Part shown: one piece after another, positions 2,531 through 8,331 of the stretch
How positions within the stretch are numbered: position 1 is the stretch's first letter
Layout of the letters: each line of letters opens with the position of its first letter
Source: a virus
Lineage: Duplodnaviria > Heunggongvirae > Uroviricota > Caudoviricetes
Virus record (IMG/VR): IMGVR_UViG_2617270943_000004
Coordinates: 1 to 40,994 of that record
Length of the DNA stretch: 40,994 nt
Direction: 5' to 3' (one strand)
Translations under genes and position numbers: made by a program
The notes under the pieces: model-generated
Told to the model about the DNA's origin: nothing
What the model saw: the letters and a program-made list of their open reading frames with translations, nothing else
The model's database searches: none

Positions 2531-4987
2531 TCAGGGAATTATCATATTCCCTGTTGTTACTATATATGGAGTATTTTCTGGCTCGTTGACTCTACTAACG
2601 CCACGCTCTACGTTTCCAGTGTGATTTAAGTAACTGCCACCTGATGTAATAGATTTCTGAAACTCTATTTTCCCACCTTGAAACGTATTCCCTGTAGAGT
2701 TTACTCTGAATGCTCCTGAAGCATTATTTATTTTGAATGCGCATGTTTCTCCGCTCAATATACATTGATTATTTTTATATGACATTGTTATTGGTCCACT
2801 TCCTGCCTCATCTTTATTTAAAGTAAAATGACTATTAAGCCCTGACGCTCCTGTTCCAGACTGTGAAACGTCATGTATTTTTACGATTTGCTCTGATGGG
2901 CCTTGAAAAATAAAACCAGTATTAGATAATGATCCGGACAGCATGCTAAACCGCGTTGCAGCAACAACATTCTCAAGACTTGAACCTGATCCTGAAACAT
3001 CACAATTAATTAGTTCAATCCAACTACCACCATAATATGAACCGTTTGAATTCCTGATATATGTCGATTCAATTTTCACCCTTTGGTTAAGAGAATCAGG
3101 CAGAGCATTCTCTGCTTGCTTGTTTAACACAATGTCACAGCCGAATATTTTTGCCCCACGCCCATAAACATTAGAGCTTTGGGTAAATCTAAGCCCTCTA
3201 TCGGCATCAGTTGAGTTTTCTCCAATAGTAACATCAATCAATGTGACGGCATCATTGTTTAATCTTGCACCTTTTGTAAATATTGCATGCAATATGTTAA
3301 GGTTGGTAACTTTTGAAGTTGCAATTAAATAATCTCCGAAATGATGGGTTACAGTTATATTATCTGCTGACTCACCATAATATTCACCACTGTTTGCAAT
3401 GCTTAAAAGACCATAATTATTATCAAATCGCAAATTGTGCTCAAACATACCGTGCGTTGTAAATGCACCATTTCTTGTTCCTGTTTCTCCGCAATCTCTT
3501 ACAGAGCAATAACTTGCACCACTAAAATCAACTACGTGCCTTCCTGAAATATTGCGTAATCTTCTTGCGTGGCATTCATATGCGTTATTGAATTGAACAA
3601 CATGATCGGACCCTGGAACTCTTGGGAAATTTGTTTCCGTATCATGAACAAAAACATTCCTGACCATGGCAGTTACAACCATTGGGTAAGGGTGATTAAA
3701 TCCATACCCGAGACAAATGTCAGCGTTATTTACGTATTCAAGGGACACAAGTGCGCATGATTGTTGACTGGCAAATGCATCGCCACCACCTGAAGCATCT
3801 GTTATGTTTTGATTCCATTTTACGCCTTTAAAAGCAATTCTTACATTTTCTATTGGGGTTACATTTCTATATGTCAATACCCTTCCGACATCAAGATGCC
3901 AGCCTGTTTTATAATCAACTCGCAATTGAGTTATTGCTCCACCACTGCCCTGCACTTGTGTCATTACATTTATTTCTCTACCTACGGTTCCCCCGCCAAC
4001 ATCCGATGACATAATAACCCACTGTCTATTCTCAAAAAGAGAGTTGTTCGTACACCAATATGTTGTATCTCCTTTTGATATTTTATTTGTTAGAGTAAAA
4101 GAGTCTATTATATCTCCAGCAGTGCCGCGAAATGCTAGAATGCCAGGAAAACGATAGTTACTTGGATTTGTAGATCCACTTCTATCAGGAATATGTCCTT
4201 CCGGAGCATTCCATATTATCTCCGTATCAGGCATATCAATTGCCAGGTCGCCGCGTGTAATTACAATATTGTTTGTTAGTATCAACTCTTTTATATTTGT
4301 TGTGATTTTTTTTGCTGGTGAGTTAATTGCTTTATGAAATGCTTCGGTGTTGTCAGCGCCATCTTTAGCTCCGAAATCCTCAAGCATAACATTATATATA
4401 TCATCTGATTTCCATACATTTCCTTCTGATGTGAAAATTATCGTTCCTCCGTTATCTGTCAATCCATCAGGATTAACACTACGGAAAAACCTTCCACCTC
4501 CTGAATAGCTGTCAGAGTAATATCCCCTCAGTCTTATAACCTGTCCATCATAACTTGGTTCAATTGTTCTCAATGTAGATATATCTTTGCATTCTCCTAT
4601 ATACTTATAGCCATCATCACTTTTCAGCAAATATGAAAACTGATCTGGATCGTACTTCAGCACATTAGGGAAATAGAACTGCTGTGATCCATATGCATCG
4701 TACACAGCCATAGAATGGCCTTGCACGGTTACGAATTTGGCAATCTGTCCGTTATATACAGGATAACCAGCAGCGTTAATGATGATTGGTTGCGAAACAG
4801 GAACGTGAGAGCCGTCTTCGTTTTCCACATAAACCTGAATCTGGTTTTCAGGATTTACAGGGTCAGTGTCAATTTTACCGATATAAATTTTGCCATTGGC
4901 ATTTGCTTTAAACGAGCGAGCTAAAGTAAATAACTGACTTGGTTGTGAAACAACAACGTTGTATAATTGTTCTGGCATAATAAACAT
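2531..4987 (-). CDS. Tailspike protein with P22-type N-terminal head-binding domain and a long divergent receptor-binding domain
   Basis: 818 aa; the first ~110 aa (NVVVSQP...[19 protein letters not shown]...INAAG...[13 protein letters not shown]...VLKYDPDQ) follow the recalled P22 gp9 head-binding domain; the remainder is G/S/N/T-rich, consistent with a beta-helix. Confidence 0.85.
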
Positions 4988-6428: not shown

Positions 6429-7055
6429 TCAATGAATCCATTCCTCGCCGCGAAGTTTTGCCAGCATTGGCTGAGCGTTCTTTACGACAAAATTGTTGGT
6501 ATCAAGATTCTTCATTTCACGAAGAAGTGATTTCTTGGTTTCTTCTGACATGTAGCGAGTCTCATATGCAATATCGTAAATCCTTCCTGAAAGCTCAGAA
6601 CCAATTTGCTTCATTCCTGGGTAGATGTGTTTGCACATTTGTTGACTCTTCTCCATCCACAATTGTAAGTAGCAGAGATTAACCAGTTCTTCGTCAGTAA
6701 ACTGTTTTGCAATCGGTGAGCATTCTGCCTGCCGATCCAAAATATCCAGCACCCAGCGGCGGAACTCTTTGGCTACCGGAGTGCGAGCAAACATCGCGAT
6801 TAGGTGGGCACCGCGTAGTGAGAAAACTCGCACTTTTTTGCGATAATTTCCTGAGGTACTCACTTCGAGTACCTGAGTCATTCCGGCGCTAAACTCATCG
6901 CTATACTTGTTATAAATCATTGTTACTGCACGACTATTTGCGTATTTAAGTGCAGATGCAATATTAGATGATGTAAACCAAACACCATGCATATCACGGG
7001 TGGGCACCAACTCAACTCCGTGGAAGTTGTAATCTGATTTTGCTACAATATTCAT
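6429..7055 (-). CDS. Phage antirepressor, N-terminal Bro-N/AntA-like domain protein
   Basis: ATG 7055 preceded by AAGGAA; N-terminus MNIVAKSDYNFHGVELVPTRDMHGVWFTSSNIASAL resembles Bro-N/AntA antirepressor N-domains; follows the arc-like gene as ant follows arc in P22 immI. Confidence 0.6.
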   Translation of the reverse strand: MNIVAKSDYNFHGVELVPTRDMHGVWFTSSNIASALKYANSRAVTMIYNKYSDEFSAGMTQVLEVSTSGNYRKKVRVFSLRGAHLIAMFARTPVAKEFRRWVLDILDRQAECSPIAKQFTDEELVNLCYLQLWMEKSQQMCKHIYPGMKQIGSELSGRIYDIAYETRYMSEETKKSLLREMKNLDTNNFVVKNAQPMLAKLRGEEWIH

Positions 7056-7128
7056 GTTAGTTTCCTTGCATACGGTTACTGACATAGAGGCCCGGTTTGT
7101 GTTCGCGCACTGCCGGGCTTCGCTATTT

Positions 7129-7302
7129 TTACTGGGCATTAGCTCTTTCCTCTCTCAGGCTTTTAGCCAGTCGCTGCACAATCGCAGAGTTGATAGAAAT
7201 TCCATCCATTTCAGCAACACGTCTAATCTCCTCCTTCATTCGCGCTGGCAAACGAAGCTGGAAACTTTGACTTTTACGACCTGTGTAAAGCACATCTTTC
7301 AT
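7129..7302 (-). CDS. arc: Arc-like ribbon-helix-helix repressor
   Basis: 57 aa from ATG 7302 with GGGAGG RBS; FQLRLPARMKEEIRRVAEMDGISINSAIVQRLAKS follows the recalled P22 Arc pattern (FNLRWPREVLDLVRKVAEENGRSVNSEIYQRV). Confidence 0.7.
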   Translation of the reverse strand: MKDVLYTGRKSQSFQLRLPARMKEEIRRVAEMDGISINSAIVQRLAKSLREERANAQ

Positions 7303-7323
7303 AAGTAATCCTCCCACAATGAT

Positions 7324-7377
7324 ACCAACTTGGTTCTAGAACCAATTTAACACCATTTATTTTGATGTCAAGTTGGT
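7324..7377. promoter_or_regulatory. Divergent arc/mnt control region with a 16-bp perfect palindrome and a flanking 9-bp inverted repeat pair
   Basis: TTGGTTCTAGAACCAA at 7330-7345; ACCAACTTG (7324-7332) and its reverse complement CAAGTTGGT (7369-7377). Confidence 0.45.
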
Positions 7378-7413
7378 GCTATTGTTTGGCGAACATCTTT
7401 ACGTTGAGGTCAT

Positions 7414-7797
7414 ATGAGCAAGTTCCCTAGTCATGAAATGGATAGGTTCAATATCAGGCTTCCGGCAGGAATGCGGGATGCTATAGCCTTAAGAGCAAAG
7501 GAAAACGGCAGATCAATGAATACAGAACTAGTGTTTATCATTGATGATGCATTGAAGTCTCCGGTGCCTGCTGAGGTTGATAACTCAAGGATTATGAAGA
7601 TTTACTCAAACCTCTCCGAGAACAGGCCATCAAACAAAGAAGAGTTTGAGCGGTGGGAGAATGAGCTAGTCAAAGCAATTTTCTACTTACTAGATAGCAT
7701 AAGTTCTCATTCGCAAATGTATCAAGCTCTCAGGAGCTTAAGGCAAGATGCATATAAAAATGTTTTTGGCGATGATGCTGAAGACATCCAGTTTTGA
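7414..7797 (+). CDS. mnt: Mnt-like ribbon-helix-helix repressor with C-terminal extension
   Basis: 127 aa; GAGGT RBS; N-terminus FNIRLPAGMRDAIALRAKENGRSMNTELVFIIDDALKS follows the recalled P22 Mnt pattern (FNFRMPMEVREKLKFRAEANGRSMNSELLQIVQDALS). Confidence 0.65.
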   Translation: MSKFPSHEMDRFNIRLPAGMRDAIALRAKENGRSMNTELVFIIDDALKSPVPAEVDNSRIMKIYSNLSENRPSNKEEFERWENELVKAIFYLLDSISSHSQMYQALRSLRQDAYKNVFGDDAEDIQF

Positions 7798-7845: not shown

Positions 7846-8331
7846 ATGAAAAAATCACTGTTAATTATCCCGCTTCTGCTGGCTGGGTGCGCAAAAGTAA
7901 GCGACCATCAGGCAAGTTGCGAGCAACGCTATCCAAAGCTTAGCGATATGGCTAATTGCCTTGATGCCAGCGTGAAGAACGACTCACGCATGGCATCAGC
8001 ACCAACACCTAAGCTGTATGTCCTTGCTGCGAAAATGCTCGGGCAAGGTGTCGATGAAGGCAAGATAAGTGACGCACAGGCAAGACTTGAGCTTCAGAAT
8101 CTTTATGTTCAATTACAAAGCCAAGAACAAGCACAACAAATAGCACAAAGCCAAGCATTCCAGCAGGCTTTATTGAATTATCAGGCTGTAAACACAATGC
8201 AAGCGATCGAGCAAAAAGCGCGCCAGCCTGTTATAACTCAACCTTACCCAACACGCGTTGACACCTATACAAACTGCAATTCAGGATTTGGAAATACCGT
8301 CACATGCAACAGTAGCAGCAACATTAGATAA
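7846..8331 (+). CDS. Predicted lipoprotein, glutamine-rich (accessory gene in the sieA position)
   Basis: 161 aa; AAGGAGAG RBS; signal peptide MKKSLLIIPLLLAGC with lipobox LAGC; Q-rich central segment; sits between mnt-like and the ejection-protein genes. Confidence 0.6.
   Translation: MKKSLLIIPLLLAGCAKVSDHQASCEQRYPKLSDMANCLDASVKNDSRMASAPTPKLYVLAAKMLGQGVDEGKISDAQARLELQNLYVQLQSQEQAQQIAQSQAFQQALLNYQAVNTMQAIEQKARQPVITQPYPTRVDTYTNCNSGFGNTVTCNSSSNIR

Follow-up and report, generated by a model that had tools for sequence, protein, structure and literature searches.

The perfect 16-bp palindrome TTGGTTCTAGAACCAA, found at positions 7330–7345 of the 40,994-nucleotide stretch of viral DNA analysed here (the window), lies in a region that is very probably operator DNA of a Mnt-like repressor controlling the promoter of an arc-ant operon. 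The fuller reading that we favour, with a fair but lesser degree of confidence, is that the palindrome would be the junction of two operators, O1 and O2, in an array of Mnt-like half-sites through which arc-ant may be silenced. The evidence consists of the sequence itself, the positions of its elements, their conservation, their covariation with the neighbouring repressor genes and their homology to bacteriophage P22. Taken as a whole, the module is an immI switch like that of P22 whose operator specificity is new; it is not a new kind of regulatory system.

The immI module and its prophage setting

The spacer that holds the palindrome (7303–7413, 111 bp) separates an arc-like gene on the minus strand (7129–7302, 57 aa, start at 7302) from an mnt-like gene on the plus strand (7414–7797, 127 aa, start at 7414). 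The original prediction took these flanking genes for ribbon-helix-helix (RHH) homologues of arc and mnt, and Pfam, BLASTP and PDB matches concur with it. Both products match the Pfam Arc family PF03869 (E 8e-12 for the Arc-like and 1e-16 for the Mnt-like protein), and the PDB matches of each to the family of the other are much weaker than those to its own. The Arc-like protein is 42% identical to P22 Arc by BLASTP, has Arc as its best PDB matches (E 1e-5 to 8e-10) and has S13, Q15 and R17 as predicted contact residues. For the Mnt-like protein the identity to P22 Mnt is 50% over residues 12–53 only (BLASTP), the top PDB match is 1MNT (E 2e-8, residues 10–54 only) and the predicted contact residues of the N-terminal RHH domain are R11, N13 and R15. 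As the BLASTP alignment ends at residue 53 and homology to the coiled-coil tetramerisation domain of P22 Mnt was not found in the C-terminus, the likeness to Mnt is confined to the DNA-binding domain. The C-terminal half of the Mnt-like protein gave no domain in the Pfam search and no relative could be detected for it; a single-sequence model (pLDDT 56) predicts, at low confidence, that it is helical.

Downstream of the arc-like gene lies the gene of an Ant-like antirepressor (6429–7055, minus strand; Pfam BRO-N and P22_AR_C), the putative regulated target, whose start at 7055 is taken from the RefSeq annotation of a 99.9% identical Escherichia coli prophage (L229). The gene order in L229 is DNA transfer protein, lipoprotein, Mnt-like, Arc-like, Ant-like, hypothetical protein, tailspike and intS, and by this annotation the module is located between the gene for a gene-16-type DNA transfer (ejection) protein and the tailspike gene of a P22-like phage. 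This is the position described for the ant moron (PMC2629481), which is highly variable and has been studied only in P22 (PMC2629481; PMC8022706); a literature search returned no paper on the present immI variant. The divergent mnt and arc-ant genes, the short control region, the two Arc/Mnt-family RHH proteins and the late-operon position are all those of a P22-type immI region, and judged by its sequence the module is the "ant moron" of a P22-like E. coli prophage.

Directly 3' of the mnt-like gene, a 161-aa ORF on the plus strand (7846–8331) carries a lipoprotein-type signal (MKKSLLIIPLLLAGC), is without a Pfam match and occupies the position of P22 sieA/orf59a; its product may be an exclusion or conversion protein that the prophage expresses and that is transcribed together with the repressor.

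The arc-ant intercistronic gap is 73 nt long (7056–7128). The plus strand of this region (7041–7130) resembles P22 sar, with an extended -10 element TGcTACAAT at 7041–7049, a predicted start (near 7056) beside the start codon of ant and, at 7087–7121, a hairpin with a U-run behind it (-28.3 kcal/mol, z -3.95). Aligned to P22, the region matches the sar promoter and 5' region with a column identity of 73%; in Rfam it returned no sar match and only a weak symR-like match (24.9 bits, E 0.09). A sar-like antisense RNA opposite the ant ribosome-binding site is probable, and the antisense arm of the circuit may be conserved as well.

Conservation and layout of the control region

One-genome-per-species contigs and viral contigs were scanned and gave about 220 further loci, and 124 divergent RHH pairs were parsed into 70 distinct spacers. 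Each protein was classed by its strand residue triplet, as every second residue of the N-terminal strand of an RHH protein points to the DNA, a rule established for Arc and biochemically inferred for Mnt (PMC2777438); our statements on P22 contacts are based on the P22 GenBank annotation, PMC2777438 and general background on P22. Class N, defined by the R-N-R Mnt-like strand of the window, comprises 52 loci; 27 distinct class-N spacers and 16 non-redundant versions of the core were compared. All 52 loci share a gap-free 79-nt core (7315–7393) with TTGG-N8-CCAA at the same place, so the palindrome is kept, at the level of this word pair, in the related immI regions that have the same Mnt-like strand. 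The core is nearly exactly kept in Salmonella phage Oslo and in a Klebsiella phage, although the flanking genes are only ~76% identical. Natural mosaics are found in complete E. coli genomes. In some of their prophages an arc-like gene with 95% DNA identity stands beside an unrelated spacer, and the N-terminus and strand of the Mnt-like protein are swapped along with the spacer.

The Mnt-like protein has a modular C-terminal half. Other E. coli prophages (L002/L003) retain an identical arc gene, spacer and RHH domain and have the C-terminus replaced, giving an unrelated, coiled-coil-looking Mnt version of 106 aa (1898–2106 in L002/L003, against 7526–7797 in the window), and the length of class-N Mnt-like proteins ranges from 92 to 135 aa across loci. 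In two class-C E. coli prophages, L004 and L005 (1798–1950), the Mnt-like gene is a C-terminally incomplete pseudogene according to RefSeq and the operator array is intact, which suggests module decay in some lineages.

Direct reading of the sequence bears out the two repeats first reported, the perfect 16-bp palindrome inside the arc-like/mnt-like spacer and the exact reverse complementarity of the 9-bp arms ACCAACTTG (7324–7332) and CAAGTTGGT (7369–7377), which a repeat search lengthens to 17-nt arms at 82% (7316–7332 and 7369–7385). The arrangement ascribed to them has to be revised. The 9-bp pair does not flank the palindrome, as its left arm shares 3 bp with it (7330–7332), and it is not a nested repeat around the palindrome; it results from two direct operator copies, O1 and O3, each with an internal CAA-n-TTG symmetry.

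Perfect 16-bp palindromes occur twice in the whole window against 0.64–0.78 expected per 41 kb, and at least one turns up in 55% of Markov-1 simulations. The only other one, ATATTGCATGCAATAT at 3280–3295, falls in the tailspike gene (coordinates mapped to the annotated twin prophage L229). The palindrome is thus unremarkable for a 41-kb window, and the functional case for it rests on position and comparison. Within the 111-bp spacer the chance expectation is 0.0017. What really supports the palindrome, on the aligned spacers, is its conservation. Among the 16 non-redundant class-N spacers the invariant positions are TTGGT (7330–7334), C7336, A7338 and CCAA (7342–7345), and positions 7335 and 7339 vary without compensation, as in TTGGTACTACAACCAA and TTGGTTCTAGTGCCAA. 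Perfect 16-bp symmetry is accordingly not the conserved feature; the inner positions vary and the perfect form is specific to the lineage of the window and Oslo.

The palindrome overlaps a predicted promoter. A scan of 7100–7600 found a single promoter-like site, the predicted leftward arc-ant promoter (7344–7371, minus strand), equivalent to P22 Pant and sharing its layout: a -35 element TTGACA (7371–7366), a 16-nt spacer, a TG-extended -10 element TAAATT (7349–7344) and a predicted start near 7337. It has 10 of 12 consensus matches besides the TG extension, and none of the 27 distinct class-N spacers departs from it in either hexamer or in the distance between them. The palindrome spans about -8 to +8 of this promoter, from the last base of the -10 element across +1, and part of its conservation is explicable by promoter needs, A7344 being the -7T and the central CTA being -1/+1/+2. 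In the opposite direction, a putative mnt-like promoter (7357–7385, plus strand) was read by eye, being below the scan threshold, with a weak -35 element TTTATT (7357–7362), an 18-nt spacer, an extended -10 element TGcTATTGT (7377–7385) and a predicted start near 7392. Its key -10 positions, A7381 and T7385, are invariant in relatives and -10 positions 3–5 vary; equivalents of TGnTAnnnT and of an upstream TTG stand at the matching place in classes T, M and K-V-R. The two predicted promoters overlap back to back.

Three operator-like sites can be deciphered around these promoters. O1 (7321–7337), GATACCAA-c-TTGGTTCT, is an odd dyad centred at 7329 and corresponds to P22 Omnt in both position and architecture. 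Its canonical core TACCA-act-TGGTT (7323–7335) lies at about +9 of the arc-ant promoter, and its centre follows the -10 end by 15 bp, as in P22 (14836 vs 14821); the distance from the Omnt/O1 centre to the common TGTCAA is 37–38 bp in P22 and in classes N, T and M. O1 thereby shows the hallmarks of a Mnt-type operator, namely an odd dyad (8-1-8) with a CA-N3-TG core just downstream of the -10 element, and across the 70 distinct spacers the operator sequence covaries with the beta-strand residues of Mnt. The palindrome on its own, composed of half-sites H2 (7330–7337) and H3 (7338–7345), departs from that layout, as it is an even dyad with oppositely oriented arms and its centre is 6.5 bp from the -10 end.

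O2 (7338–7354), AGAACCAA-t-TTAACACC, has an intact left arm (H3) and a degenerate right arm, which is taken up by the leftward -10 element and its TG extension. The dyad score at its centre (7346) is only 3.4/8 in class N. The O1 and O2 centres are 17 bp apart in the window, 18 bp in class T, and 16 bp in classes M and K-V-R, in which O2 forms a good dyad. O3 (7364–7380), GATGTCAA-g-TTGGTGCT, is a direct repeat of O1 (13 of 17 positions identical; mean match 12.2/17 across class N) that includes the right 9-bp arm and overlaps both the leftward -35 element and the rightward TG-extended -10 element. In every class a class-specific word (TTGGTG, TGATGC or GTGATA) directly follows TGTCAA, and in every class there are three operator sites with centre spacings of 16–18 and 26–27 bp. 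An odd dyad of the form xxxCA-N3-TGxxx (5-N3-5) is common to P22 and all classes at the same promoter position. A CI/C2-type operator repeated across the prophage was considered and discarded, as the exact word is unique to the spacer and one-mismatch matches are near the chance level.

Which dyad is the binding unit is a question on which the comparisons lean only modestly, to the side of the odd dyad. The spacing within the operator (5-N3-5) is constant in all classes and that between operators varies (N3, N4 or N5), which favours the odd dyad as the rigid unit. Within class N, however, the dyad-axis scan ranks the palindrome (6.75/8) above the odd dyad at 7329 (5.4/8) and a third dyad at 7359 (5.0/8), and the outer positions of H1 are weakly conserved among the 16 non-redundant spacers; the even dyad being better conserved than O1, the repressor may use H2 and H3 as its primary site. 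Compensatory changes were sought in the class-N core list, where the pairs 7323/7335 and 7335/7340 match no more often than base composition predicts.

This leads to the strongest competitor of the array, namely that the palindrome is a discrete operator on which a single dimer-of-dimers sits over H2 and H3 about 7337/7338, the CCAA of H1 being accessory or incidental. Besides being the best class-N dyad axis, the palindrome has its TTGG and CCAA invariant at the fixed N8 spacing in 27/27 spacers, and the centres of the words TTGGT and ACCAA are 11 bp, or one helical turn, apart. The Arc operator has a similar one-turn spacing. That RHH dimer-of-dimers sites are usually inverted repeats (PMC2777438) counts for this reading too. 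Against it, the palindrome position is the best dyad in no other class and not in P22, all of which have the odd 5-N3-5 dyad at O1; the inner 8 bp vary with compensatory changes absent; the corresponding inter-arm spacing ranges from N3 to N5 between classes; and the orientation of the arms is opposite to that of P22 Omnt. On balance we regard a discrete palindromic operator as a serious but unlikely alternative to the half-site array.

The probable reader of the element

The word at the operator position follows the Mnt-like strand. TTGG-N8-CCAA accompanies the R-N-R strand in all 27 distinct spacers of class N and in 0 of the 43 spacers of other classes, CATCA-N3-TGATG accompanies R-T-R (24/24) and TCAC-n-GTGA accompanies K-M-R (15/16). 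Loci outside the parser add the classes K-V-R, K-T-R and K-N-R with GGCA-N3-TGCC words. The individual sites are TGGCA-tta-TGCCT for K-V-R, AGGCA-aat-TGCCT for K-T-R and GGCCA-taa-TGCCA for K-N-R, again in a three-operator design, and are found in L114, L124, L165, L181 and similar loci on viral contigs, ~130 bp upstream of position 1201; the partner in L114, L124 and L165 is a different Arc-like type (MEKNEVKTTLRYP...), which is also common to several classes.

The Arc-like strand behaves otherwise. Its triplet S-Q-R occurs with three operator classes (22, 22 and 12 distinct spacers). The original prediction had both flanking repressors binding the symmetric element, and of this the presence of two RHH genes on its flanks stands, whereas the element tracks the Mnt-like strand only and the Arc-like strand is shuffled among classes. 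Since the word tracks the one and the other reassorts, the element is assigned to the Mnt-like protein, which we infer to be its binder rather than both proteins. The association of the spacer with the Mnt N-terminus could in part reflect physical linkage, with recombination confined to conserved flanks; linkage alone is insufficient, because the N-terminus of the arc-like gene is equally near the spacer and yet freely reassorted.

For the same reason, autoregulation of arc-ant by Arc-like protein bound to the palindrome, whether or not the Mnt-like protein takes part, is most doubtful. The idea has a precedent in P22 Arc, an RHH repressor that shuts off its own promoter (P22 annotation; PMC2629481), and the TCTAGA at the palindrome centre recalls the TAGA/TCTA boxes of P22 Oarc. 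The strand S-F-Q-L-R, however, is unchanged across the entirely different words of those three classes; the Arc-like proteins of the window and L004 differ at 2 of 57 residues and their spacers are unrelated, while between L007 and L019 the Arc-like strand changes (SFQ vs KFM) and the spacers stay near-identical. The central CTAG is moreover missing from classes T and M, whose Arc-like type is the same, and in P22 it is the promoter spacer, rather than +1, that holds Oarc. With its contact strand independent of the operator class, the Arc-like protein was rejected as the palindrome binder.

A site for the Arc-like protein may lie elsewhere in the spacer. By position only, the pseudo-dyad CACCAT-ttatt-TTGATG (7351–7367), found in the leftward promoter's spacer, is a candidate operator for the Arc-like protein. 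It is the third-best class-N axis (centre 7359), is perfect in L053, L063 and L061, and occupies the same promoter spacer as P22 Oarc; covariation of this pseudo-dyad with the Arc-like strand was not found. A search for elements common to the spacers of one Arc-like type, or changing with it within one Mnt class, gave weak candidates only, and a recurring yCATTk motif was set aside as it is better explained as the -35 element of the rightward promoter. In L053 and L063 (also in L012 and L052) there is a perfect CACCAT-attag-ATGGTG dyad with a TAGA box, 3 nt from the -35 element at the Oarc position, and the Arc-like strand of these four loci, V-F-N-L-R, is the closest to that of P22 Arc (Q-F-N-L-R). 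The TAGA-containing dyad of these V-N-R loci is, on its sequence, a lead for the Arc-like operator.

That the palindrome has no protein-binding role at all, and reflects promoter and start constraints, chance or an RNA or DNA hairpin, is the least credible reading: about 0.7 such palindromes are expected per window, A7344-A7345 belong to the -10 hexamer and CTA (7336–7338) lies at the predicted start, but only 0.0017 are expected in 111 bp, the word recurs at O1 and O3 and is replaced as a set, at every site, when the Mnt-like strand changes, and the palindrome would be only half transcribed. An RNA element or terminator was likewise discarded, the scan giving no terminator-like site and Rfam no family match.

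Proposed regulation, significance and known systems

Returning to the half-site array as the preferred reading, the mode of binding, its stoichiometry, the activity of the promoters and the direction of regulation are proposed from the above comparisons. The array would consist of 8-bp half-sites of the AGAACCAA type in alternating orientation, H1 (7321–7328), H2 (7330–7337) and H3 (7338–7345), followed by a decayed H4 and a distal pair H5/H6 at 7364–7380. H1-c-H2 would be the canonical Mnt-type operator O1, with the place and layout of P22 Omnt, and in the palindrome the right arm of O1 would meet the left arm of an O2 whose other arm has been replaced by the -10 element. In P22 it is Mnt that represses Pant from Omnt, and Arc that represses both Pant and Pmnt. 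In a lysogen, Mnt-like protein over H1–H3 would cover the edge of the leftward -10 element, the start site and the early transcribed region, and would thus keep arc and the antirepressor silent. As the two promoters overlap back to back, silencing of the strong leftward promoter would be expected to favour the mnt-like promoter, like the promoter competition of P22, and binding at O3, within the mnt-like promoter, may provide autoregulation.

The expectation of a distinct immI specificity holds in that the palindrome differs from the P22 operators and represents one of at least six classes seen. If the inference is correct, the antirepressor would be governed by P22 immI logic with a different, non-cross-reacting operator specificity, and among P22-like E. 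coli prophages this one would belong to a secondary-immunity group of its own. The pairing of strand and word across at least six classes is the more interesting by-product. On an otherwise constant scaffold, R-N-R pairs with CCAA, R-T-R with TCAT, K-M-R with TCAC, K-V-R and K-T-R with GGCA, and H-N-R of P22 with CCAC. The set could be used to test how RHH proteins read DNA and could serve the building of orthogonal repressor/operator pairs; no Mnt–DNA structure exists (PMC2777438).

More tentatively, and with somewhat less than even confidence, we consider that a large uncharted immI family may exist in Enterobacterales prophages, in which a cassette made of the Mnt beta-strand and the three-operator spacer is swapped as a unit between arc/mnt flanks. 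If so, there would be at least six mutually orthogonal pairs that differ for the most part in one or two residues of the strand (centrally N, T, M, V or G; in the first position R, K, P or H), amounting to a natural RHH recognition code together with secondary-immunity (heteroimmunity) groups. The three sites, with O3 in the mnt-like promoter, would then imply autoregulation or looping absent from P22.

Among the closest known systems is Mnt/Omnt of P22. In both phages the immI module lies between gene 16 and the tailspike gene, mnt is divergent from arc-ant, and the order is, in the same orientation, arc start, Omnt (O1 in the window), -10 element of Pant, the promoter spacer (which holds Oarc in P22), -35 element (TGTCAA) and mnt; the RHH N-domains are 50% identical. 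P22 Omnt, AGGTCCAC-C-GTGGACCT, and the O1 of the window, GATACCAA-C-TTGGTTCT, are both odd dyads with a CCA-N3-TGG core. The differences lie in the operator word (ACCAA in the window, GTCCAC in P22) and the first contact residue (R11 in the window, H6 in P22), in the number of operator positions (O1, half O2 and O3 in the window, one in P22), in the perfect even palindrome created at the O1/O2 junction of the window, and in the C-terminal domain of the Mnt-like protein (residues 54–127), which is unrelated to the C-terminus of P22 Mnt. The mnt-like promoter of the window is probably shifted downstream relative to that of P22, with O3 inside it.

The likeness to the Arc side of P22 is in gene organisation, the arc-like gene being the first of the ant operon and being followed by the putative sar-like antisense region. 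P22 Oarc is a 21-bp site with TAGA-N5-TCTA boxes between the -35 and -10 elements of Pant, whereas the palindrome sits at +1 without TAGA-N5-TCTA, its TCTAGA being a single overlapping box.

Multi-site operator arrays are known for other RHH proteins, among them the met-boxes of MetJ, the heptads of omega repressor and the sites of CopG. Like these, the control region of the window has tightly packed short half-sites in alternating or tandem order, with half-site starts 8–9 bp apart in the window; the likeness is one of layout, without a sequence relationship. By analogy with such arrays, the half-sites of the window could take several RHH dimers side by side.
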